A stretch of DNA of 64,000 nucleotides from Hypanus sabinus. Lineage: Eukaryota. This document shows, piece after piece, positions 2,376 to 18,269 of this stretch; within the stretch, counting starts at the first letter, position 1, and every line of letters begins with the position of its first letter. The notes beneath the pieces were generated by a model. It worked only from the letters and a program-made list of their open reading frames with translations, ran no database searches and was not told where the DNA came from. Location of the stretch: positions 32,984,001 to 33,048,000 of the forward strand of contig NC_082728.1 in NCBI RefSeq assembly GCF_030144855.1, read 5' to 3'. The translations under genes were made by a program, and so were the position numbers.

Positions 2376-2747
2376 TGTTACACGGGGTGACAGGAGAATC
2401 CAAGTGCAGGACACCGGCATGTCCACTCAGTTGGGGAGGCTGGCGTAGACCAGAACGTAGAGGAGGAAACCAGAGCGATCTTGACAAGGAGACGGGATTC
2501 ACAGGGACTATCTAGAAACTAGAGCAGAACTTGGAACTAACTGTTCTAAACGGAACAGGGAACAAAGTATCACACGAAAATTAACCAACGAACTGGCAAC
2601 CTGTGATAGAGTCGTCCTCGTATTTATTCCCAGTCTCTGATGAAAGCCAGGTGTACGATTATTGGGTAACTAGCAGCAATTGACTGAAATTGGGGCATGA
2701 TCAGGGAGAAGAGTGTTAAAGGGAAACGGCCAACGGGAACCATGACA
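2376..2747 (-). repeat. Gypsy 3' LTR
   Basis: tgttacacgggg...ccatgaca, homologous to 17906-18269; adjacent polypurine tract. Confidence 0.93.
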
Positions 2748-2750
2748 ATA

Positions 2751-2763
2751 CCCCCCTCCCCCC
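2751..2763 (-). other. Gypsy polypurine tract
   Basis: cccccctcccccc on + strand, 3 nt inside the 3' LTR. Confidence 0.85.
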
Positions 2764-2789
2764 ATTGGGAGCCTACCAGCATTCCTCCA

Positions 2790-4654
2790 GGCCTGTCCGG
2801 ATGGTCCTGATGAAAGTCCTGAATGAGGAAAGGGTCTAGGATAAAGGAGCGGGGGACCCAGGAACGTTCTTCAGGACCGTACCCCTCCCAGTCCACCAGG
2901 TATTGGAGGCCCCTGCCCTGACGGCACACATCTAACAGTCGTCGGACAGTGTATGCCGGATGGTTGGCGATGAGCCGGGCAGGGGGAGGAGTCTCAGCTG
3001 GGGGACACAAAGGGCTGACGAAGACTGGTTTTATCTGGGACACATGAAAGGTTGGGTAAATACGCATGGACTTGTGCAGCGTGAGGAGAACCGTTTCGAT
3101 CTTGAGTGGTCCCAGGAAGTGGGGGGCGGGTTTCCTAAGTACTAGGGCGTATTTGAGCGGGCTGTCCTTGGCGGAAAGCCACATCATCCACCCCGGTTGG
3201 TACTCTGGTGCTGCAGTCCGGTGTCGGTCGGCCGTTTTTGTCGATCTGAGTAGGGCCGTGCGGGTCTCCTCCCAAACCTTCCGGCACCGATCAACATGGT
3301 CCCGAACCGACGGTACCGCGATCTCTTCTTCCTGACCGGGGAACAGCAGCGGTTGATACCCAAGGGAGCACTCGAACGGGGACCTCCCAATGGTAGAGTT
3401 CACCAGGGAGTTGTGGGAGTACTCAATCCAGGGAGATGGTCGCTCCAGGTTGACGGGCGGTTTGCTGTTACGCAGCGTAACGTTGCCTCCAGGTCCTGGT
3501 TGACCCGTTCCGTCTGCCCGTTTGTCTGGGGGTGGAAGCCGGATGACAATCTGGCCGTTGCTCCTGGGGCTCGACAGAAGGCTCTCCATACCTGCGAGAT
3601 GAACTGGGGACCCCGATCGGAGAGGATGTCCGCGGGGATTCCGTGGAGGCGGGAGATGTGATGGACTAGAAGATCTGTCGTTTCTTGCAAGGGTGGGAGC
3701 TTAGGGAGGGCCACAAAATGCACCGCCTTGGAGAATCAGTCTACCACGGTGAGGACAGTTGTGTTTCCGCGGGAAGGGGATAGACCGGTGACGAAGTCTA
3801 GAGCGACGTGGGACCAGGGACGACCAGGTACAGGTAGGGAACGGAGTAATCCCGCAGGTAGCCGATGGGAGGCTTTTCCACGGGCGCAGACGGAACATGC
3901 GGAAACATAGGAACGGGTGTCAGGGTCCATGGAGGGCCACCAGAAATGCCTCTTCAGGAGGGTCAGGGTCCGATCAATTCCGGGATGGCAGGCGAAGCGA
4001 GAAGTGTGCCCCCACTGTAGGACCTGTGATCGAACAGCATGGGGTACAAAGAGGCGATTGCGAGGTCCGGTGCCTGGGTCGGGATGCGTCCTTTGGGCCC
4101 CTGACTTTGGACCCGATCTCCCAGGTGAGGGCAACCATTACACAGAAATCCGGAAGAATGGTTTCGGAGTTGGGAAGATCCTCCTCGGCAACGTATTGGC
4201 GGGAGAGGGCATCGGGCTTCCCGTTCTTGGACCCCGGACGATAGGTGAGGGAGAACCTGAACCGGCCAAAAAATAATGCCCAACGGGCCTGGCGGGAATT
4301 CAGGCGTTTGGCGGTCTGGATATATTCATGGTTCTTGTGGTCTGTCCAGACGATAAATGGGTGTTCTGCCCCCCTCCAACCAATGCCTCCACTCTTCCAA
4401 CGCCAGTTTGACCGCTAGTAGCTCCCGGTTCCCCACTTCGTAGTTTCGTTCGGGGAGAGAAGGCGGCACGGGGATGTAGTCTCTGATCCGGGCCCGAACG
4501 TTGGGACAGTACCGCTCCCACCCCGGAGTCAGAGGCGTCAAACTCCACAATGAACTGACAGGAGGGGTTCGGTTGAATCAGAACAGGGGCAGACGTGAAA
4601 CGCCTCTTCAGTTCGGCGAATGCGGAGTCCGCCCCGGAGTTCTAAAGGAAAGGG
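2790..4654 (-). pseudogene. Gypsy pol 3' part: RNase H, integrase, chromodomain (frameshifted)
   Basis: [75 protein letters not shown], chromodomain [23 protein letters not shown]. Confidence 0.93.
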
Positions 4655-4658
4655 GTGG

Positions 4659-5007
4659 TATTGGAGTTTAAAAATATTACGGAGTATAAAACTTGTATCA
4701 TTTGCTGTGTAACTAGTCAGTTTGCTATGTATGTACTCAATTTAGTAGAATGAAATCTTAGGAAGGTAAAAGACAAATGGTGTGTTAATGGAAGGTAGCT
4801 GAAGAGATGTAGATTAGAACTGTACATGTGGTAAGTGTGAAACTGGACCAGGATTTTGCTATAAAAAATGCCGTGTCCGAGGATCGGTGGGCAATCAGCG
4901 ACTAGCTCAATGACTGTCTCAGCTTTGATTTGCAAATTAAAGTTTAACCCTTCTTGAAGAATCTTCTGCGTCTCTTGGTCATTTGTGAGGCACGAAAAAC
5001 CACGACA
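4659..5007 (+). repeat. ERV 5' LTR (349 bp)
   Basis: TATAAAA 4860-4866, ATTAAA 4936-4941, ends ..cacgaca; matches 15209-15679. Confidence 0.9.
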
Positions 5008-5011
5008 TAAT

Positions 5012-5029
5012 TGGCGACCGCTGCAGGAC
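5012..5029 (+). other. ERV primer-binding site (TGGCGACC..., tRNA identity uncertain)
   Basis: TGG start 4 nt after LTR end; TGGCGACCGCTGCAGGAC. Confidence 0.7.
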
Positions 5030-5300
5030 CGGATAGAGACCCGCGGAAAGGAAACGGCAGACTGGGGGCACTTCCCAGTCCTCTAGGGACCCCCACAAGG
5101 CTAACAGAATTAAGGGTGCACCCAAACAAAAAGTAAGCGCTTTTTGCGACAATTTGGACTAAGAATTCTGTTGGCTTTCGGGAGGTCTTGGAGTCTCAGA
5201 AGTGTGGAACCACTGCCGAAGGGTCTCTCCGGTCCACAGAATCTGGCAGAATTGGGGGTTAACAGAGGAGGCTCAGAGGATTGATCAAGAACACTGCAGT

Positions 5301-5310
5301 GAAGGTAAGT
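5301..5310 (+). promoter_or_regulatory. Candidate ERV major splice donor
   Basis: GAAG|GTAAGT consensus in the leader upstream of gag. Confidence 0.5.
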
Positions 5311-5851
5311 ACAAAAAAGTTAATAAGAAGTTAAGAAAAAGTCCACGTGGTGTTGGTCAATCCCTGTGGGTACCGCTTCGTATGAAACGAAGGGCTGAAC
5401 GGGCAGGGAAAGTAGAATAGAAAATCCTCGTGGATACCGCCTTAAGAGATAAGGGTCTGAACGGCCGAGGTGTTTAGAGTAGAAAATCCTCGTGGATACC
5501 TCCTTAAGAGATAAGGGTCTGAACGGGCGAGGTGCAAAGAGCAAGTTCTGTAGGTACCGCTCTGATTAGAGGTCTGCACGGGCAGGACAGAATAGGAAAC
5601 AAGTTCAGTCCAATATATAGTTAAAAGCGCTGGTAGATAGACAATAGACTAGGCATAGAATTAGAGTAAGTTAAGAAAAAGTCCATGTGGTGTTAACCTA
5701 GGAAGAAAAAGTCCACATGGTGTGTAGAATTAGAGTGAATTTAGTGAAGAAAAAGTCCACGTGGTGTTAGACTAGGCGCAGAATTAGAGTAAGTAATATT
5801 ATCCAGTAAACAAACTGTGAATCTCTGAAATACCTTAAAAAGATAGAATAC

Positions 5852-7979
5852 ATGACAGGTAAAGGAACGGCAGTAGAGATTCTGAGCAAAAAAATTCCCG
5901 TTAATTAATAATGAGATCACAAAAACTTCAGAAAAATGGGGAAAAAAGAACCAATAACCTGGTCACAAAGTGGCCAAGAGAAGGAACGTTTGATGTAAGT
6001 TTGTGCGAAGAAATGGGGGGACTAATTAAAAATTACAAACCTAAAGATAAATCTAAGAAAAGAGAGCAAAAAAGAGAACGAGAAATGGAAGTGCTAAAAC
6101 TCTTCAGAACGGAGGGGGAAAGGCTGAGGAGGACAGGTAGAATATTGATTACAAGCGAGGAAGACACTAAGGTGCTGGAGAAACAGCCTGTTAAAGAGAG
6201 AGAAGGGTGCGGTGAGAAGCTGGCTTCGGCTCCGTACCCGGATGCGAAAGAAACAGAAAAACCCCCTCCCTATAATGAGGAAGGAACCCCTAAGCAGTGC
6301 CCCCTGCTGACAGTGACAGTAACCATGCAGGGAGAAGTCCAAGTTTGGGATAATGAGGAGGAGAAAAAACAATACGAGAAGGAAAAAGCGGCGATATGGA
6401 AGGAGATACAGGCAGAAAAGATGAAGATAGAACAGGTACAGAGAGAAATGGGAGAAGAGATTGAACGGATGAAATACTTAAAAGAGGAAAAGGAGTATGA
6501 GGAGTATTGGTTATACTATAGAAATAAACAGAGAAGGTAACTCATTGGAGGAACAAGAGTTAAGTGGAGAGAGAGAGGATGTGAGAATTTGTGGGGAAGA
6601 GATAGGAGGCAGTAGGGGAGCGACTTGTGGAAGTAGAGAGAGAGCCAGATAAGTTACTGAGAGTGGATTGCCAGATGTGAAAAATACTCCAGGGGCCAAC
6701 CAAGTATTGAATCAGGACAGAAAGGAAGGACTCCACAGGGAGACCGACGGAAGAAGAGAACCGCGGAGACATTTGTGTGGGAGGCAGTAAAGATATACCC
6801 TGAGACAGATGGGGAGTCAGGTGAGGAGGTGAGCCAGGGCAGTTGGGAAGAAGGAGGAAGAATGATGCCATTGTTAGTAAAAGGATCAGGACAAGTGCAG
6901 TACATCCCTTGGGGATCCCAGGACCTAGAAGGGCTGAAAAACACTCTGCCGATCTACATGAAGGAGCAGGGAAAATGGATTAGAGCCTTTGAAGAAGAAA
7001 CAGCGGGACGATTATTGGCTATGGGAGATTTGAAGGCACTGTTGATAAGGTTGATGGGAACCTCCAAATTTAACGAACTAATGGAAATGGCTGGCATAGT
7101 AAACTCAAACGACCCGAGCACCGATGGAGACGGGTTTGACAGAGTGAGGCAGAGGGTATGGCAGGCCCTCAGAAAGTTTTATCCACCCAAAGTGGACCCC
7201 AAAGCCTTAAAAGGGGATCCACTGGGAGACATTGAAAACCCAGCAGCCTACGTAGAAAACCAGTTGAAAAGGTGGAGACTGGAGACTGAGCAAGAGCTTA
7301 TTTATGACCTCACTGTTCCGACATAGCATTTTGGATGCAATGCCTTCACAAGTAAAATCCAAACTGGAGGAAGTGGTTGGGCTAACGTCAAAGACCCCAC
7401 AAGAATTTAGAGACCACGTAGTCCATGCGGTTGAGAAATACCAGAAAGACAAACGAAGGTTGGCTGAGCAGCAGGAAGAGGTGCAAAGAAAGTTAATACA
7501 AATGCAGCTTGAAGAACTCAAAAAGAAGGAAAAAGAGAAAAGCAAAAAGATGCTGCCAGCAACCACTGGTCCGAGTACAGCCATTGAACTGGACAAAGCA
7601 CTGCTATATGGGGGAACTGATCATACTGTAAGACAAGGGCTGGAAAACCCCATGCCAATAATCGTCTTTGGCGGAGCATTCCCACAAATGCCCTATCAGG
7701 AACAGACTAAATTCAAACAGCCCAGACAGGACTGGAAGTTCCAAGGAGGGGGACAGAGAAGCTATGGGGTAAAGGGGACCAGTGAGGAAACAGGGGGAAA
7801 GAGAAGTAGAGAGATTGTGCTGGGAATGTAATCAGCCAGGTCACATGAAAAGAGATTGTCCGTTTATACTATGGCCTGTCACACACCAGCAGGAACCGAT
7901 AAGAAGGGAACTAAAGTTTAGCCAAGGACCAGCCCCCACAGGCCCAAGCGGACCTGTGAACCCCTATGCGAGGTATTAG
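5852..7979 (+). pseudogene. gag: ERV gag (frameshifted)
   Basis: ORF pieces 5911-6540, 6775-7326, 7304-7831, 7782-7979; capsid-like YIPWGSQDL..KWIRAFEEET..GDLKALL; zinc knuckle CWECNQPGHMKRDC. Confidence 0.88.
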
Positions 7980-8330
7980 GGGTGCCCAGAGAACTTGAGT
8001 GGGAAGGGACATTACCCAATGATAACAAGGGAGGCAGATGAGGAACCCATTGTTCAGGTTATGTTAGAAGGACAACTGACACCAATGCTGATAGATACTG
8101 GAGCCATGTACACTTGTGTACAGCCACAGTATGCCCTTCACCTTCCCATGTCAAGAAAGTTTATTAAGACGGTATGGTCTCGGGGAAAACACAGTTGACA
8201 CAGTGCACGGCTCCACTGCGGTTGAGAATGGGAAATAAAATTGTTTTGCCGGTGCTAGTATTTAAAGGAACTCCAATTAATTTGTTAGGCAGAGATGCCT
8301 TATTGAATTGGAATTAAAATTAGAATGCAC
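7980..8330 (+). pseudogene. pro: ERV aspartic protease
   Basis: MLIDTGA and NLLGRD motifs; in frame after gag TAG; two frameshifts. Confidence 0.88.
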
Positions 8331-8400
8331 CAGAAATGGGCTGAGTGTGGGAAGAGCAGGGGCTCAATTGATAGTGCGAGAAGACAAGAAGGCTAATGTC

Positions 8401-8850
8401 TTTTGGATAGGAGACATCGCAGATCAGATTCAGGAATCCTGGGAAAAATGGAAAAAGGGCGTGCAGGCTATATTACCCCCGGCTGTAATGCCCAAATCTG
8501 AGCTACATTGTACAGTGATCGTTGACGAGACTCAGAACGGGGAGTTAGAGGAGAAATGGCACCTAGAGGCGTGTACCCAGCAGCGCCTGGAAGGGGAGGC
8601 TGTGATAATTGGAAAGCAAGGGGCAGCTTTACAAGTTAAGTGGAACACCTTTTTAGAAAAATGGTACAGGATACCGGAGGCTGCGCCCCACGTAACGTTG
8701 TTGGTAAACATGGGATATCAGTCTAAAGACTTAGGACCCTTAGTTAAGAGTGCTGAAACCGTAACAGTGTGGAGGAAAATCACGCCAGAGGTGTGGATAT
8801 CAGAAGACAACAATTGTATTAAAATAATGGTAAGTGTAGATATGGTAGGG
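8401..8850 (+). CDS. 2H phosphoesterase (CNPase-like) domain inserted in ERV pol between PR and RT
   Basis: Two HxT motifs ELHCTV (His 8506-8508) and APHVTL (His 8689-8691), 61 aa apart, inside uninterrupted ORF 8308-9192. Confidence 0.75.
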
Positions 8851-8929
8851 ACAGTGAGAGAGGTCGAAACAACTCCCCAACCACACCTGCCCTTGCTGGG
8901 AAAGGAAAGAGGCCAGCAGAAAGATAAAA

Positions 8930-11408
8930 GGTTAGATGAGTTGCCATCTATTCTGTGGCCACAGCATGACACGGACGTAGGGAAAATAAAAACAGCGAGT
9001 CCGGTGGAAGTAAGGCTGAAAAGGGGAGCAATTCCACCCCGGAGACCACAATACCCTCTAAGTCCAGAAGCAGAAGAGGGAATAGCATCGACAGTGCAGG
9101 GGTTGCTTGAAATAGGAGTGCTTAAAAGAAGCACTCCATGCAATAAAAAGTCCATGGAATACCCCGTTGCTGCTGGTTTTAAAAGCAGATAAATCTAAGT
9201 GGAGATTGGTGCATGATTTGCGAGCGGTAAATGATGTGGTAGAGGACTGGCCAGCGGTAGTCCCCAACCCACACACGCTTTTGACTAATGTTCCACCAGA
9301 AGCAAGTTACTTTTCAGTGATTGATTTGTGTTCGGCTTTCTTCAGCATTCCTGTAGCCCACCAGTGTCAGTATTTGTTTGCATTTACTTACAGAGGTGCT
9401 CAGTATACCTATACCAGAATGCCGCAAGGATTTAAACATTCACCACACGTTTTTAATCAGGTATTGAAGGCAGACCTGGAGGGTATGCCATTGGAAAGTA
9501 CATTGTTACAGTATGTTGATGACCTGTTGATTTGCTCCCACAGTAAGGAACAGTGTGAGCAGGACACTATAACTCTGTTAGAGAAGCTAGCGCACGGAGG
9601 ACATAAAGTATCCAGAAAGAAACTGCAATTTTGCACACAGCAAGTGGAATACTTAGGCAGGGTAATATCCAAGGGAGTGAAGGCGATAGCACCAGATCAG
9701 ATTGAGGCAATAACTAAGGCCGCCAAACCCCAGACTGTAGGGCAGATGATGACGTTTTTGGGAATGGCAGGGTACAGCTCAGATTGGATAGGAGAATATA
9801 CCGAGATTGTGGCACCTTTAAGAAAGATAATGAAAGAAGCAGGACATACAAATTTGAAGAATGGCTTACAGTGGAATGGAGAGGCAGAGACAGCTTTCAA
9901 TACTATTAAGCAGGAATTGCAGTCAGCACCAGCATTAGCTTTGCCTGACTACGAGAAGGTTTTTTATTTGTATGTATCCAACCGACAGGAGGGTTATGTT
10001 ACAGCAGTTCTAACACAAGAGACAGGCACAGGAAAAGCAAAGCAGCCGATAGCATACTACATACAGTACGATACTAGATGAGGTGGCTCAGGGGTATCCA
10101 CCCTTTTATCAGGGATTGGCGTCGCTGTACTATGCATATGAAAAGGCATCATCTGTAACCCTGGGCTAGCCTGTGACTCTGTACACACACCACAATGTAG
10201 CAGAATTACTAGAAAGAGGGAAATTTGTGTTAACGCCAGCTAGGATAGCAGTGTATCAGATGCTATTGACATTTCCAGATATAACTATACAGAGATGCAC
10301 TACCAGTAATATAGCCGATTTTGTCCCTTTAGACTATGAAGGAGAACCCCATGATTGTGTAGGGAAGACGATGGCATTTGCCAAATTAAGAGCAGATTTA
10401 CGATCAGAACCAGTAGAGGATGCAGATAAAAAGGTTCTTTTCGTAGATGGCTCTTGTTATAGGGATTATGATGGAAATCACGCAGGGTTCTCAGTCGTGC
10501 AGCAGGATCAGTCGAGCTATAAGATTATTAGGATGGAGTCCTGTCCCCAACCGTGTTCCGCCCAACTAGCGGAAATCAAAGCCCTGATAGCTGCGTGTGA
10601 AATGATGGAAGGTGAGAAAGTAGACACCTATACTGATTCGGCATATGCTCATAAAGTATGCCATTTGTTCGGGGCAGTGTGGAAGCAGAGAGGTTTTAAA
10701 AAAAAGAAGCGGAGATCCCATACAACATTGTCCGCAAATTCTAGACTTAATAAAAGCCATAATGAAACCTAAAGCATTGGCTATAGTAAAATGCCAGGCA
10801 CATTAAAAGGGAAACGATGTAATAACAAAGGGAAATCAAGCTGTGAAGCCTAACTCCAGAACCTGAGGTAGAGGACCTGATTGAAATACAAGGTAAGGCA
10901 ACTTTGGCAGAACAGACAATGTGGAGAAAAAGGGGGGCCAAGCAGAACCCGGAAGGCTTGTGGAGCACGGAAGATGGTTTGTTGGTAGCGCCCACCCCGC
11001 TCCTGACGATTCTGATTTCAGAGGCGCATGGGATGGACCATTGTGCAAGGGAGGGAAGTGATAAAGAAAATAAAGAAGGATGGTTTTTGGTCACCTTATT
11101 TACAGGCTTCAGTGGACTTTTTCTTGTCACAGTGTGAGGTATGCGCACAGAATAATGTTCGAAAGGGAATTACAACCCCAATAGGCCACATTCCTGTACC
11201 TGAAGGACCATTTAAACATCTAGTGGTCGATTACGTAGACATGATAAAGACAGTGAGAGGGAAAAGATACATGCTGGTAGTAATTGATTGATTTAGCAGA
11301 TGGGTGGAGGCGGTACCTTCAAAAGATCAAGGGGCAAAGACGGTGGTAAGATTTCTGACAAATGAAGTGATCCCAAGGTTTGGAATACCTACAGAAGTTA
11401 GCTTAAAC
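8930..11408 (+). pseudogene. pol: ERV RT, RNase H and integrase N-terminal half
   Basis: PQYPLS, LVHDLRAVN, VIDLCSAFFSIP, MPQGFKHSP, YVDD, FVDGS, YTDSAY, HGMDH..CEVC, GPFKHLVVDYVDM. Confidence 0.93.
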
Positions 11409-13945
11409 AAACTATAATGTGTTGCATTTATGAAATCGATGAACTCCTGCAGAGAAAACGAATTACATTTCTGCATGCAACAAAAACATTTTGAACTCCG
11501 AAAAAAAGACAGGTTGAAGTTTACTTTTAAGTAAAATAATCAATGTCTATTTGAGTCCTTCTTGTATTTATGAAAAACACTGAACCTACATTGTCCACCA
11601 GCAGCAAACCAAAAATAACGACAGCCAGCTGTCAACCTGAAAAATAAAAGGACTATTTCACTGAACAATGAAAAAATATGAATATATGTAAAATAATAGG
11701 CAATTAAAATATTTATCATACTTGGTTAATGGGATTTCTGCTCCTGGACCTCAGCACACAGTGTCTGCACATCAGGGCTGTATGACGTCACCTTCATCTT
11801 TACACAGGATCGCAAGCTGTCATCTGTGAGGCGTGCGCGATGTTTGTTTTTAATACAGTTCATGTTGGAGAACACCTGCTCATACACATATGTTGATCCA
11901 AAGATCGACAGGACGCCAAGCGCATACTTTTTAATGTTTACATAAATGTCGGGGATAGCATTCCATGTTTCGAACACAAGTTTGTCCGGTTTGGGGAGGT
12001 TTTCAATATCACTCCATTTGTGATTCTGAGCAAGAACGGCCTTCTGACGGGCAACATCTTCAAGGTCTGCTGTCAAGCGTCTAAACTTGGACACCCATAT
12101 GTCTTTGTCGGCTATGTCGGCCAGTTCCATCTCAAGATCAGGTTGACTCACACCTGCCAATGCAGTCGTATTCAGTGGGATGGATTGATGCTTAGGGGAG
12201 TGACCAGGAAGGATAATGTGTTTTTTACCTCTCTGAACTCACAGAAGCGTTTCCCAAACGATGTTTGCATTGCGATGATTGCAGAATGTAAATACCCCGA
12301 ATTTATCATGTCGTGAGCTTGTTTGAACTCTCTCAAATTGGGGAAGTGAGACAATGTGCCTTTCTGTAAATCTCTGGCAAGCACTGTCAACTTGTGCTGG
12401 AATGCCAAAACATCCTCCAACATGTGCAGGGCTGTGCATCCTTTCCCCTGAAGAGCTGTGTTCAGTGTGTTCAGGTGCGCTGTCATGTCTACCATGAAGT
12501 GTAGCTTTTACAGGCACTCTGGCTGTTCCAGCTCAGGAAAGGTGAGACCTTTACTGCCCAGGAAAGTTTTCACTTCTTCCAGACACACGACAAAGCGTTT
12601 CAGCACCTCCCCTCTTGACAGCCACCGGACTTTGTTGTGCAGCAGGAGATCAGAATATGCGCTTTCCAGCTCGTCCAGTAACAAACGGAATTAACGGTGA
12701 TTTAAACTTCTTGCCATTATTTTATTGACAATCTGAATGACAAGATCCATTACTTCCATGCATTCCGTAGGAAATGTTTGAGCGCACAGTGCCTCTTGGT
12801 GCAAGATGCAGTGAAAAGTCAGCAGCTTTCTGTCCAGTGACTTCTGCAGTAAAGCCACAAATCCCTTGTGCGCTCCTGTCATACTTGGTGCCCCATCAGT
12901 AGCTACTGACACCAGGTGGGTGGTCTTTATTACTTTGGCTCTTAAACAATTCAAGACAGCCTCACAGATGTCCTCCCCCCATGTCTGGCCTTTTAGAGGT
13001 ATCAACTCAATCATTTCTTCCTGTGGCCCGGCAGAGTTTACATACCGGTGGAACAGCGCTAATTGTTCAATATCACCTTTGTCTTTAGACTCGTTACAGG
13101 CAACCGAGTAGGCCACAGCTGAATTGATGTCTTTAATTTACTGTCTTCTGATGTCTTCTGCCATTTTTATGGTTCTGTCTTTGACAGTCTTTGCAGAGAG
13201 GGGCATATCCCTGATTTTCTGCACTATTTCACTCTTGTTTTTAAAGTCCGTGAATAGATGTTCTGAAATCTTAATGAAAGATTCTTTTATATATTCACCA
13301 TCTGTAAACTGCTTCCCGTGCCTGACTATTTCCTGAGCGGCAACAAAACTAGCATATGTCGTTGATTTTCCAGACATCATCCACTTCTTGAAATGATTTT
13401 TGCTGAGATCAACCTTCCGCATCAGTTCCGAAACGGCTTTTTTTCTCTCATCTCCATCCGGATATTTTTGAGCAAAGGCTGCGTGTTTATTCTGGAAATG
13501 TCTTGCGAATTTGACTTTTTGTTGTTTGCTAGTTTCTCATTGCATATTAAGCATACCGGTAAACCAGTCTCGTCAGCAGTGAAAGCAAATGAATCTGCCC
13601 ACGTATCATTAAATGTTCTGTTTTCTTCAGTCACTTTTCTTTTTTTTTAAGAATTCTCCATAGTTAGCCTACCTTGGATCAAAAAATTAAAGAAATCGCG
13701 CACTGGCGGGTGTCAGGCATTGGCCGTGGTGACGTATATTAATAGCGACAAACAACGCGTTTTATTTAGATTGTACAAGATCACCATAATCTTCAAATTT
13801 AGAATTACATTTCAAAAACTAACAAACTAACATAAAATACATTTTAATTAAATACTCATCATTTATTTTCCAAAGCCATAGGGAGCCGCAGCACAGAGAT
13901 GAAAGAATCGGATGCGGCTCTGGAGCCGCGGGTTGCCGACCCCTG
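11409..13945 (-). mobile_element. hAT DNA transposon (Buster/SPIN, GTF2IRD2-like); one end deleted
   Basis: TIR ggttgccgacccctg 13931-13945; transposase on minus strand. Confidence 0.88.
11726..13661 (-). pseudogene. hAT transposase (frameshifts and stops)
   Basis: PVCLICNEKL, VATDGAPSM, FHCILHQEALCA, LSIFGSTYVYEQVFSNM, RARLTDDSLRSC. Confidence 0.9.
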
Positions 13946-14096
13946 GTTTATACATAGCATAAAGGCAAAAAAAAAACGTTGTATGCAGTGTTATTTCATT
14001 TTAAATGTCAAACGGGTTTTGTGGCTCCCAGTGTTTTCTTTTCTGTGAGAGACGGGTCCAAATGGCTCTTTCAGTGGTAAAGGTTGCCGACCCCTG
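13946..14096. mobile_element. End of a second, non-autonomous hAT element
   Basis: Second TIR ggttgccgacccctg 14082-14096 followed by GCTTAGAC; left counterpart GCTTAAAC at 11401-11408. Confidence 0.7.
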
Positions 14097-14350
14097 GCTT
14101 AGACAATGGTTCAGCTTTTATCCAGAAAGTGGTCAAACTGGTACTACAGGCGCTGAGGACAAAGCAAAGATTTGGATGTGTATACCACCCTCAGTCGCAG
14201 GGCATGGTAGAGAGAATTAATGGAACCCTGAAAGCCAAACTAAACAAAATTTGTGCAGACACTAAACTTAATTGGGTCGATGCTTTACCGTTAGCATTGA
14301 TGAGTTACCACATGCAAACTAATCGAATGACATGCCTGACACCGCATGAG
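14097..14350 (+). pseudogene. ERV integrase core continuation
   Basis: LDNGSAF..YHPQSQGMVERINGTLK..WVDALPLAL..LTPHEI. Confidence 0.9.
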
Positions 14351-14944
14351 ATTGCTGCAGGCTGGGAAGCTGTCATACCTGTGATAGGGGTAAGCAAAAA
14401 TGTTTAATGGATAAACTACATATACTATAATCAACAGAGATTCATCAACTACACCGATGATGCACTGGAGGCCTTAGGGCAACAGCTAGATGCAACTAGC
14501 AGGATGGCGTGGCAAAACAGACAGGTACTGGATTGGCTTTTGGCAGGAAAAGGGGGTGTGTGTGTAATGTTTGGAGAACAATGCTGCACTTTCATACCGA
14601 ACAATACTAGCCCAGAAAGGTCTTTCACCAGAGCAATGAATAAATTAAAGAATCTGCGGACGGAGGTCAAACAGAATGCAGGGTTCGGACATCAGTTTTT
14701 TGATTGGTTAGAAAGTAGACTCAGAGGATGGGGAGCATGGCTGACTAAAATGGCAATAACTGTCAGTATTGTAATGTTGAGCTGTGCGTTTGTGCTGTGC
14801 TGTTTTCTTCCTTGTCTCAAATCTCTTATAGTGCGTGTTGCAACCAAACAATTTCCGATGCTCGTGGCAATTACCGAAGCAAGCTTAGTGAAGAAAAAAA
14901 CACCGAAAATGTTATCGTTACAGCCTAAAACACCTGCAGGATGA
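14351..14944 (+). pseudogene. env: ERV env TM subunit remnant (SU deleted)
   Basis: WINYIYYNQQRFINYT, immunosuppressive-domain-like WQNRQVLDWLLAGKGGV, CX6CC (CVMFGEQCC), hydrophobic anchor MAITVSIVMLSCAFVLCCFL. Confidence 0.9.
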
Positions 14945-15208
14945 ACAAGAGCAAAATGACAGTGTGGGAGTAGATTGTAAGGGCTTATGAGTCTTTTTCC
15001 CTGTCTCAGGTACAAAGGGACAGGTTTTTTTGGCTCAGCGGCCCAGGGTAACAGGGAGAGAATACTTTTGAGGACTTGGTGCAGAAAATTATAGTTTAAC
15101 CTGAGATTTGGGAATAAATGTTTGAGTTTATTGAGGCTTTTGTGCGCGGACTCTTAGTCTTCTTTCTCTGTGTGAGTACCTCTGGGTCTCAAAGGGCGTT
15201 TATATATA

Positions 15209-15679
15209 TTTTGGAGTATAAAAATATTATGGAGTATAAAACTTGTATCATTTGCTGTGTAACTAGTCAGTTTGCTATGTATGTACTCAATTTAGTAGAA
15301 TGAAATCTTAGGAATGTAGAAGACAAATGGTGTGTTAATATATGGTAATGAGAGGTAGCAGGGAGATGTAGTCAGCTTTGAAACTTGCTATTTGCTATGC
15401 ATGTACCCAATTTAGCAAGAGAACGAAATCTTAGGAATGTAAAAGACAATGGTGTGTTAATGGAAGTTAGCTAAAGAGATGTAGATTAGAACTGTACATG
15501 TGGTACATGTGAAACTAGACCAGGATTTTGCTATAAAAAATGCCGTGTCTGAGGATCGGTGGGCAATCAGCGACTAGTTCAATGACTGTCTCAGCTTTGA
15601 TTTGCAAATTAAAGTTCAACCCTTCTTGAAGAATCTGCTGCGTCTCCTGGTCATTTGTGAGGCACGAAAAACCATGACA
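15209..15679 (+). repeat. ERV 3' LTR (471 bp, extra U3 repeat unit)
   Basis: Matches 4659-5007 plus ~122-bp duplication; ends ..catgaca. Confidence 0.9.
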
Positions 15680-15683
15680 GTAG

Positions 15684-17889
15684 CAGGTGAGTTAAGTCGG
15701 GTAAGGGGGCCGCCACCTGACTGTAGTTTCTGATGAACCGGCGGTAGAAGTTCGGCGGTAGAACACCGTTGGTGTCGCTTGCGGTCCGTGGGTTTGGGCC
15801 ACCCTGCCACAGCCTGGATCTTCTCAGGATCAGCTCTCACCTGTCCACGCTCGATGATATACCCTAGGAAGCTGACCGAGGGGACGAGGAATTCGCATTT
15901 CTCTGCCTTTATGAATAATTTATTCTCCCCCAGCCTCTGCAGGACTTGATGGACGTGTTGGACGTGTTGCTGGGGACTGCTGGAAAAGATCGGGGTGTCA
16001 TCCAGGTAGACAAACACACAGCGGTTAAGGAAGTCTTTTAGACATCATTAATCAAGGCTTGAAAAACTGTGGGGGTATTGGTGAGGCCGAAAGGCATGAC
16101 TAATTACTTGAAGTGGCCTAACGGGGTATTGAAAGCCGTCTTCCACTCGTCCCCCTCCCTTATCCGGACCAAATGGTAGGCATTTCGGAGATCCAACTTC
16201 AAGAAGATGGTGGCTCCATGAAATGGCTCGAACGCAGAACATAAGAGGCAGTGGGTACTTGTTCTTAATGGTGATATGATTTAGGCCTCGGTAACCGATG
16301 CAGGGATGGAGAGAGCCGTCCTTCCCCACAAAGAATCCAGCACCCACCGAGGAGGATGAGGGTCGAATAATAGGGCCGCGAGAGACACACTAATGTATTT
16401 CTCCATGGCTTCTTTCTGAGGCCGGGACAAGTTATACAGGTGACTGGTGGGTAACGAGGACCCGGGAAGAAGGTGGATAACACAGTCATACGGGCGTTGT
16501 GGAGGCAGGGAAAGAGCATGTTGCTTGCTGAATACCTGTCCCAGGTCATGATATTCTGTGGGAACTCTGGACAAGTCGAGAGTTTCAAAGACGGGCGAGG
16601 TCACTGTATCCTCCCTAGGGGATAGGGTTGACTTCAGACGGGTGGCGTGGCAAAATGGGCTCCAGCTGGCTATCCTCCCGGTAGACCGATAAATGTCAGG
16701 GTTTTGGCGGCGTAGCCAGGGGTATCCAAGTACTATCGGGGCTTGAGGAGAGGAGATTAGGTTAAATTGTACCTGCTCCCGATGATTCCCAGAGAGGATC
16801 AAAGACAGTGGAGTAGTAGGGTGAGTGACTCGAGCCAGTACCCGCCCTTCCAGAGGGGTAGACAGCGGCTCCCGAGGAATTCCGGCCTGGACAGCTATGT
16901 CTTCATCCAACAGATTCCCCTCAGTACTGGAGTCTATCAAGGTAGACAAGGACAAGGACTGTCGATTGTAGGTTACAGAAGCTTGGATCTGCATCCAGGC
17001 TTGGGGAACCGAAGGGAGATTCACCAGAACAGTTGGAGTGGGGGCTACACTAGGAGCGGACGGGGAAGAGAGGCTGGCTGAAGATGTTAAGGTGGGCTGT
17101 AGGATGACCCGCGGAGCGGGGTGACTGGTCTTTTCTCTCAGATGTTCTCGAAGTCGATTATCTAGCCTGGTGGCTAGAGAGACCAGAGTCCAGGCTGTTC
17201 GCATCATCCCTGGCCGCTAATTCAATTTTTGTCAGAGAGACCCGGTCGAAACACTTCATGTAGTGCTTCGTCATTCCACCCAGAGTCAGCCGCTAATGTT
17301 CGGAACTCTACAGAGTATTTCGCTACGCTTCGCGAGCCCTGACCGAGAGTCAGAAGGCGCCTAGTGGCGCCCTTCCCGCGAATGGGATGTTCAAAAATCT
17401 TCCTCATCTCCGAGATGAAGGTGGAGAAGGAGGAACAGACCTCTGGCCGGTTGTCTCAGATCGCGGTGGCCCATGATAAGGCATCCCTTCCTAACAGCCC
17501 CATGATGTACGCAATTTTGATCTGTCCGAACTGTACGTACGTGGCTGTTGCTCAAAAACCAGAGAGCACTGCTGTAAGAAAGCCCAGCACCTTCCTAGGT
17601 CCCCAGTGTAGGGTTCTGGTTCAGGTACGTAAGGCTCTCGAGGTGATTGTGTTACCGAGCCCAGGGGTGTAGCCATCCCAGGCTGTGCGGTTTGGTCAGA
17701 CTGGGTTCTTGGAAAGGACAGAGTAAGGGGAGCGGATACCCGAACAACCTGCTCACTGACCTTCTTTACATCCTCAGGTAGGGCATGAAGATCTTTCATG
17801 ACTTCTCTGAGTAGTTGATCATGTATGCCCAGTAGGGAGCCCTGGCTAAGGAGGGCCTGTTGCACCAGGTCCATGTCCACTGGGTTCAT
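15684..17889 (-). pseudogene. Gypsy gag-protease-RT (frameshifted)
   Basis: PEPYTGDLGRC..FLQQCSLVFEQQP, QGSRSVAKYSVEFRTLAA..WNDEAL, LIDSS (degenerate DSG), KNKYPLP, VYLDD, KAEKCEF. Confidence 0.92.
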
Positions 17890-17893
17890 TCTG

Positions 17894-17904
17894 GCTAGTT
17901 CGTT
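17894..17904 (-). other. Gypsy non-tRNA PBS (self-priming type)
   Basis: AACGAACTAGC 1 nt from the 5' LTR, no TGG; complementary to LTR 18106-18116. Confidence 0.75.
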
Positions 17905-17905
17905 C

Positions 17906-18269
17906 TGTTACACGGGGGCAACAGAGGAGAACCCAAGTGCAGGACACTGGCACGTCAACTCATTTGGGGAGGCTGGTGTAGACCTGAACATAGAGCAGGA
18001 AACCAGAGGAATCTTGACAAGGAGACGGGATTCACATGGACTCTCTAGAAACTAGAGCAGAACTTAGAACTACTGGTTCTAATCAGAACCAGGAAGAAAG
18101 TATCCAACAAACTAGCAACCTGTGATAGAGTCATCCTTGTATTTATTTACCAGTCTCTGTTGAAAGCCAGGTGTACGATTATTGGGTAACTAGCAGCAAT
18201 TGACTGAAATTGGGGCATGATCAGGGAGAAAGAAGTGTTAAGAGGGAACTGCCAACCAGAACCATTACA
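17906..18269 (-). repeat. Gypsy 5' LTR
   Basis: tgttacacggggg...ccattaca; minus-strand ATAAATA at 18140-18146. Confidence 0.93.

Follow-up and report, generated by a model that had tools for sequence, protein, structure and literature searches.

A Pol-embedded two-histidine domain with a predicted CNPase-like fold in an endogenous retrovirus family of Hypanus sabinus, and its possible activity on RNA ends

What does a retrovirus gain from an additional domain between its protease (PR) and its reverse transcriptase (RT)? The question is raised by a provirus in a 64,000-nt stretch of the genome of the ray Hypanus sabinus (NC_082728.1, positions 32,984,001 to 33,048,000; hereafter the window, whose own numbering is used below), for which the initial annotation had proposed a two-histidine (2H), CNPase-like phosphoesterase at this place, serving either to destroy immune nucleotides such as 2',5'-oligoadenylate (2-5A) or to process 2',3'-cyclic phosphate ends of RNA. 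The second option proved the better supported of the two: we propose, at a probability of roughly 0.55, that this Pol-embedded 2H domain with its predicted CNPase-like fold worked as a 2',3'-cyclic phosphodiesterase on RNA ends, and not as a 2-5A antagonist. Judged from the structure model, CNPase-type chemistry as such is probable; the end-healing of nicked RNA, be it primer tRNA or genome, is the least certain step and is advanced tentatively.

Both segments on which the 2H assignment was built, ELHCTVIV and APHVTLLV, are present, with their His codons exactly at 8506 and 8689. They share one stop-to-stop frame (8281-9192), in which RT begins as well (PQYPL at 9046), and to this extent the earlier description of a single uninterrupted open reading frame (ORF) stood; that frame is not continuous with the protease, however, as NLLGRD of the window copy lies in a different frame, which stops at 8315. 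ORF 8308-9192 was rejected as a stand-alone gene, being a product of frameshift decay. The folded domain occupies about 165-170 amino acids, the low end of the 170-200 extra residues estimated before, within an LLGRD-to-QYPL span of 256 amino acids in the ray family and 249-288 amino acids in 17 stored proteins. The domain of the window copy matched no Pfam family, its search against PDB sequences returned RT matches only, and a domain-only profile search returned nothing.

Structure prediction from a 71-sequence alignment gave a confident model of 169 residues (predicted local distance difference test 94.5, predicted template-modelling score 0.89), in which the two lobes of a 2H fold are formed and the motifs lie on strands 47-52 and 107-112. 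Vertebrate CNPase and fish RICH (PF05881; 2xmi, 1woj and 2i3e) were the best match among solved structures (Z 15-17): every Foldseek match listed against the PDB (among ranks 1-50, E≤0.001) was CNPase or RICH, VIA-align against 48,161 chains scored CNPase at Z 15.7 and the next structure at 9.8, and a second comparison reached Z 17.0 for CNPase (root-mean-square deviation 2.8 over 161 of 169 residues). Each of the 21 chains that scored Z≥5 against the 48,161 was of 2H type, as judged by title or, for a few untitled ones, from background knowledge. The cyclic phosphodiesterase (CPD) domain of the fungal tRNA ligase Trl1 (6u05, PF08302; Z 12.8 in the second comparison, where LigT scored about 9) forms a second structural family, which acts on RNA cyclic-phosphate ends; the retrovirus, unlike Trl1, has no ligase or kinase partner. 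Atlas neighbours were tRNA-ligase CPD clusters at 0.96, a lead whose recognition score falls under the threshold. Lesser VIA-align scores went to mouse hepatitis virus ns2 (8.3), Acb1 (7.8), the rotavirus VP3 C-terminal domain (VP3-CTD; 7.7), AKAP18 (7.7) and the penguinpox cyclic GMP-AMP (cGAMP) phosphodiesterase (6.8); these proteins, with AKAP7, are mostly virus-encoded and share the 2H fold and two HxT/S motifs, and the viral 2',5'- and cGAMP phosphodiesterases among them score 6.8-8.3, about half as high as CNPase. Among viral models, the domain matched those of the unnamed Q2VF30 (TM-score 0.84), walleye epidermal hyperplasia virus 1 (WEHV-1; Q9WHI8, 0.78) and walleye dermal sarcoma virus (WDSV; A4GTG3, 0.76), the last two of which are labelled 'envelope polyprotein' in the library and were taken as pol polyproteins from their lengths.

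Relatives of the domain were numerous, with 166 clusters found in a HMMER scan at E≤0.001. Across 93 homologues with at least 120 amino acids of the domain (155 hits examined; 3 of the 93 are Hypanus proteins), the two His were the two most conserved columns (97% each), the catalytic Thr was also among the most conserved, and both HxT/S motifs were retained in 80. Relatives with a name were teleost ERV (endogenous retrovirus) proteins: 7 of the 10 looked up in one set, the named clusters of a second, and all 50 organism-named rows among the 71 hits of one search, counts in which an annotation bias towards teleosts is likely. Where Pols hold both 2H and RT, the 2H domain lies upstream of RT in 65 of 66, and both motifs are kept in 63. 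The 2H tree of these 66 Pols recovers 13 of 14 strong RT splits with zero strong conflicts, and the distances of the two domains are correlated (Mantel r 0.88); this agreement indicates a single old acquisition followed by inheritance with pol. Recent capture from the host CNP gene was rejected, because a PF05881 search of the genome recovered the host gene (2 exons, C87) and no ERV copies. The ray RT clusters with smelt and pipefish elements (support 100/99). A host switch from teleosts is not claimed, in view of the extreme length of the gypsy outgroup, an unsettled bootstrap and an approximately unbiased test that, with 28 named teleost rows among the 66 used, does not reject teleost monophyly (P=0.085).

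The domain type has already been reported for fish retroviruses, as the initial annotation suspected. One review, citing Basta et al. 2009, credits epsilon-like fish ERVs with an occasional CNPase or macro domain (PMC4977317), and another, citing Mazumder et al. 2002, lists 2H domains in fish retroviruses and WDSV (PMC9503650); the ray family adds a further member. WDSV, WEHV-1 and teleost epsilon-like ERVs carry the same domain at the same position between PR and RT. The ray family differs from the walleye viruses in its cartilaginous host, which has OAS and RNase L, in its at least 150 copies and in its primer, tRNA-Arg in place of tRNA-His (PMC3185748). No functional test of a fish-retrovirus 2H domain was found in the literature searched, most subscription journals lying outside its coverage. 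The available portion of a paper on elephant-shark ERVs makes no mention of the domain (PMC4422223), the words CNPase, phosphoesterase and cyclic are absent from a zebrafish ERV survey (PMC8672886), and 'retrovir', 'walleye' and 'CNPase' are absent from the accessible main text of a 2025 preprint on viral 2H enzymes (bioRxiv 10.1101/2025.08.21.671373).

The active site was compared with that of CNPase, with residues numbered from the first (His1) and second (His2) catalytic histidine. The ray domain is about 45 residues shorter than CNPase and is without its N-terminal kinase-like domain; the two have in common HCT, H[VI]TL, an aromatic residue at His1+5, Gly at His2+15 and a helix after the second motif. 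The residue at His1+5 is Tyr or Phe in 61 of the 66 distant Pols (Tyr in 59); LHCTVIF, with Phe at this position, occurs in 74 of 89 ray copies, and Val in 2 of 89, the window copy included. In CNPase, Phe235 stacks the base, as stated in the consulted part of PMC4643303. The predicted helix runs from His2+11 to +22, with Gly at +15 in 61 of 66 Pols, a spacing also found in the host CNPase exon (exon 3; the profile comparison with it was weak, at probability 1.8% and E=0.027, and served for motif spacing only). According to PMC5283653, helix alpha7 occurs in CNPase alone, leaves room for water only and closes off the side that 2-5A-cleaving enzymes use to bind 2-5A. The helix at model residues 118-129 is likely its equivalent, and the predicted model would thus be closed on the side where AKAP7, ns2 and VP3-CTD have an open site.

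These observations bear on the first role offered before, a 2',5'-phosphodiesterase acting against RNase L through the destruction of 2-5A, in the manner of ns2 or VP3-CTD. The superfamily is shared with these enzymes and with AKAP18, at the scores given above, and genes of the pathway are present in the host. An OAS cluster (C31:79654985-79853208) holds about eight OAS1_C exon sets in tandem, most of them some 25 kb apart, with an NTase exon carrying its motifs in the one OAS gene read; the cluster appears to be an OAS expansion in a cartilaginous fish. An RNase L gene (C29:96062390-96085689) has a 598-codon ankyrin-kinase exon, whose best PDB match is RNase L (E=5e-90), and two distal RNase-domain exons with weak Pfam matches (E up to 10); the two best PF06479 matches in the genome we take, by their sequence, to be IRE1-type exons. 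Against this role stands the host range, for ray-finned fishes lack OAS-RNase L through loss in their ancestor (PMC10400998), and 2-5A therefore cannot be the general reason for a domain whose 50 organism-named relatives in one search are all from teleosts and whose motifs survive in 63 of 66 Pols. The predicted helix, furthermore, sits where alpha7 blocks the 2-5A side in CNPase (PMC5283653, in part), and the fold is nearer to CNPase. The proposal of OAS-RNase L antagonism was thus weakened, and we consider it unlikely.

Copies within the ray genome were examined for selection. A query with the domain gave 150 scored matches of 90-100% identity among 962 candidates, so that the family comprises at least 150 copies; annotated Hypanus sabinus proteins are 86-89% identical to the window product, in agreement with the cartilaginous-fish host suspected from the letters. 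Two sets were drawn: 90 of the 150 copies found with 2H, one with an identical protein match being dropped (n=89, 2H-picked), and 70 of the 150 copies found with RT, four near-identical ones being dropped (n=66, RT-picked), the latter avoiding selection by the domain itself. Both motifs are intact in 75 of the 89 2H-picked copies, and PR and the 2H domain are in frame in 74 of 89 (50 of 62 in the RT-picked set). The stretch from DTG to YVDD is open in 9 of the 71 2H-picked copies that span it (mean pairwise identity 95.8%). At least 90% of the domain is held by 60 of the 66 RT-picked copies, 45 of which have both motifs; precise loss of the domain was not seen, all six copies with less than 90% having larger deletions or rearrangements.

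In the RT-picked set, the ratio of non-synonymous to synonymous polymorphism (pN/pS) of the 2H domain was 0.32 for variants common to at least five copies (16 synonymous, 20 non-synonymous) and 0.84 for singletons (61 and 199; Fisher P=0.014). The corresponding values were 0.15 and 0.98 for RT outside the query, and 0.27 and 0.72 for PR (P=0.08). The 2H-picked copies gave 0.22 for variants in at least ten copies, although this test is biased by the choice of copies and overlaps the RT-picked set, on which we relied. Shared variants thus lie well under singletons: the domain was under purifying selection while the family replicated, if slightly weaker selection than RT, and its later decay has been about neutral. 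Together with the predicted fold, for which CNPase was the best Foldseek match, the motif conservation among family copies bears out the 2H/CNPase-like identity. Conservation among the 93 homologues also leaves little room for a non-catalytic scaffold, or for a decoy against host CNP, which can bind Gag and block retroviral assembly. The mammalian CNP gene is interferon-stimulated, and its product, by binding HIV-1 Gag, inhibits the formation of particles without need of its enzymatic activity (PMC5758531), which lends this idea some appeal; it leaves the conserved catalytic His and Thr unexplained, nothing in the present data links fish CNP to retrovirus restriction, and we hold it to be very improbable.

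A working scheme for the favoured activity, cyclic phosphodiesterase chemistry on RNA ends, would be as follows. Lying inside Gag-Pro-Pol, the domain would enter virions in the same amount as RT. The viral protease would free it at two family junctions, GAQL/IVRE and PH[M/L]/PLL, which resemble retropepsin sites: GAQL/IVRE has Gln at P2, a listed preference of the WDSV protease (PMC2790309, in the part available), and PH[M/L]/PLL resembles M/PLL in gag, which was taken as the capsid start by inference. From these junction sequences, release by PR is likely. Water-using CNPase chemistry would then turn a 2',3'-cyclic phosphate into a 2'-phosphate and a 3'-OH, and a nuclease-nicked tRNA primer or genome could be healed in the virion or the reverse-transcription complex. 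Such healing would be useful, since priming of RT and ligation both require a 3'-OH end. That CNPase chemistry acts on cyclic ends, and that CNP is able to replace the yeast tRNA-ligase CPD, favours end-healing. A wider proposal, that a whole clade of fish retroviruses, with WDSV and the ray ERVs among its members, carries in its virions a fourth Pol enzyme, captured and of CNPase type, which restores 3'-OH on nuclease-cut tRNA primers or genomic RNA, is speculative.

The same chemistry could instead clear small cyclic phosphates, namely 2',3'-cyclic nucleotide monophosphates (2',3'-cNMPs) released when RNA decays, or else ADP-ribose 1'',2''-cyclic phosphate, and leave RNA ends alone. CNPase hydrolyses 2',3'-cNMPs rapidly, and the available parts of two reviews place macro domains in some fish ERVs and link viral 2H domains to ADP-ribose systems (PMC4977317, PMC9503650). 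There is no clear gain, however, from tying such an activity to the dose of Pol, alpha7 is thought to make CNPase, in contrast to plant CPDases, accept 2',3'-cyclic substrates alone, and no macro domain was matched in the scanned pieces of the window element. We regard this alternative as improbable.

Several points weigh against a CNPase-type enzyme acting on RNA ends. Sequence identity between the domain and CNPase is only 9-16%, and PF05881 was reached by one of 44 family members (E=0.011) and not by the window domain, with weak 2H-clan matches in a few of the 44. The equivalence to alpha7 rests on secondary structure, spacing and the overall superposition of a predicted model. Over the 66 Pols the 2H tree has a length of 35 and the RT tree one of 18.5, a rate of evolution about double that of RT. 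Because the Arg at His2-2 (CNPase Arg307) is absent, mostly replaced by Ala, Val or Thr, and because Lys or Arg stands at His2+12 in 60 of 66 Pols, where CNPase has Val321, the pocket may accept another ligand. Extension may be hindered by the very 2'-phosphate produced, and retroviruses that lack this domain replicate all the same. Finally, the substrate of a 2H enzyme is not determined by its fold (bioRxiv 10.1101/2025.08.21.671373).

Some of these features could suit a virion-delivered nuclease that degrades cGAMP after cGAS senses viral cDNA, and so dampens STING. The basic residue at the Val321 position is compatible with such a ligand, and fast evolution could reflect conflict. A STING ligand-binding domain was found in the host, and teleosts retain cGAS-STING, so that the host range fits. 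Other viral 2H enzymes, Acb1 and the poxvirus phosphodiesterase, do degrade cGAMP (bioRxiv 10.1101/2025.08.21.671373), yet their Z scores (7.8 for Acb1, 6.8 for the penguinpox enzyme) compare with 15.7 for CNPase, although the folded model comprises 169 residues and a lid may lie outside it. The predicted alpha7-like helix would, moreover, narrow the site. A cGAMP nuclease is, on balance, doubtful.

The provirus that carries the domain has a class I epsilon-like layout, long terminal repeat (LTR)-primer-binding site-gag-(TAG)-pro-pol-env-LTR, with a murine leukaemia virus-like RT and a gamma-type transmembrane protein (Table 1). Its LTRs are identical at 332 of 347 aligned bases (95.7%), and the primer-binding site fits, at 17 of 18 bases, a host tRNA-Arg(tcg) gene at its 3' end with CCA added. 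In the leader between that site and gag, 62-base direct repeats at 5381-5504 could belong to a packaging signal. gag terminates in TAG (7977-7979) in the same frame as pro, a stop that is probably of the read-through type; three gag pieces scanned gave no meaningful Pfam match. PR, the PR/2H junction and RT are broken because of one-base deletions near 8177 and 8305-8308, the former two in the protease, and a 13-base insertion near 9131-9145 that shifts the RT frame; a second break in RT lies near 10075. No env surface part was seen in the window provirus. The window copy is an ordinary dead provirus, incapable of activity.

Table 1. Parts of the window provirus and of its 2H domain (window coordinates).
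Feature	Position	Strand	Remarks
Provirus	4661-15679	+	LTRs at both ends; dead copy
5' LTR	4661-5007	+	Ends in CA; direct repeat with 15211-15679
Primer-binding site	5012-5029	+	Complementary to tRNA-Arg(TCG)
gag	5905-7979	+	Several broken frames; assigned from position
Aspartyl protease (DTG, LLGRD)	7980-8340	+	PF00077, E=4e-4 and 0.03, two pieces
2H phosphoesterase domain, predicted CNPase-like fold	8371-8877	+	Structure model, Foldseek and VIA-align
First catalytic motif, HCTV	8506-8517	+	Aromatic at His+5 in family, Val in window copy
Second catalytic motif, HVTL	8689-8700	+	Pro precedes in 66/66 distant Pols
Helix after second motif (predicted)	8722-8757	+	Model residues 118-129 (DSSP); conserved Gly at His+15
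RT and tether (YVDD)	8900-10078	+	PF00078, E=4e-29; PF17919; matches Moloney murine leukaemia virus RT
RNase H	10170-10769	+	PF00075, E=3e-13
Integrase, broken frames	10800-14345	+	Start approximate; rve_3, E=0.0016 for 3' piece
env remnant, transmembrane part	14345-14944	+	PF00429 TLV_coat, E=3e-11, profile 441-552 of 560
3' LTR	15211-15679	+	About 120 bases longer internally than 5' LTR

Other mobile elements surround and interrupt it. The integrase is split by a relic of a hAT-like DNA transposon of about 2.7 kb on the opposite strand (~11401-14097; PF05699, E=0.004, under the profile cut-off), with an 8-base near-repeat at its borders and no left terminal repeat seen. The provirus itself sits in a minus-strand LTR retrotransposon of gypsy-like type (2624-4641 and 15616-17907), assigned from motifs, whose RT reading is split by the insertion. 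Copies on the same contig at C42:32907843, 32992380 (the window) and 33078852 lie about 85 kb apart; of the two neighbours, one has an identical protein match and the other shares the frameshifts of the window copy, which suggests tandem segmental duplication after insertion.

A second, divergent 2H-bearing ERV family was not evident with the one distant query used, most top places being sites of the known family. Four annotated proteins, P0003, P0180, P0181 and P0214, are named Siah1, Fc receptor-like, BAP31 and TRAPPC9, yet are ERV pro-2H-pol products; these host-gene names likely reflect mis-annotation or chimeric gene models. Contigs of four sequencing runs span the 2H region (two guessed to be RNA, and two metatranscriptomes with sparse cover) and demonstrate neither transcription nor an intact product. 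Sequencing runs from seven organisms contain sequence near-identical to 8320-8900 (41-55% of the words sampled), and the ERV family may be common to related species.

Taken together, a domain noted in fish retroviruses since 2002-2009 and still missed by Pfam has a predicted fold suggestive of CNPase-type chemistry, while the obvious 2-5A explanation is made less likely by hosts that keep the domain but have no OAS-RNase L. In this clade the domain is an old component of Pol, passed on vertically and under selection, and not an occasional passenger. If RNA ends were indeed healed, retroviral Pol would gain a new activity, which would also give a hint on the long-unknown RNA substrate of vertebrate CNPase; an enzyme of this kind carried across the clade would represent an RNA-repair countermeasure new to retroviruses, one that would act downstream of any host endoribonuclease and would be useful with or without OAS-RNase L.

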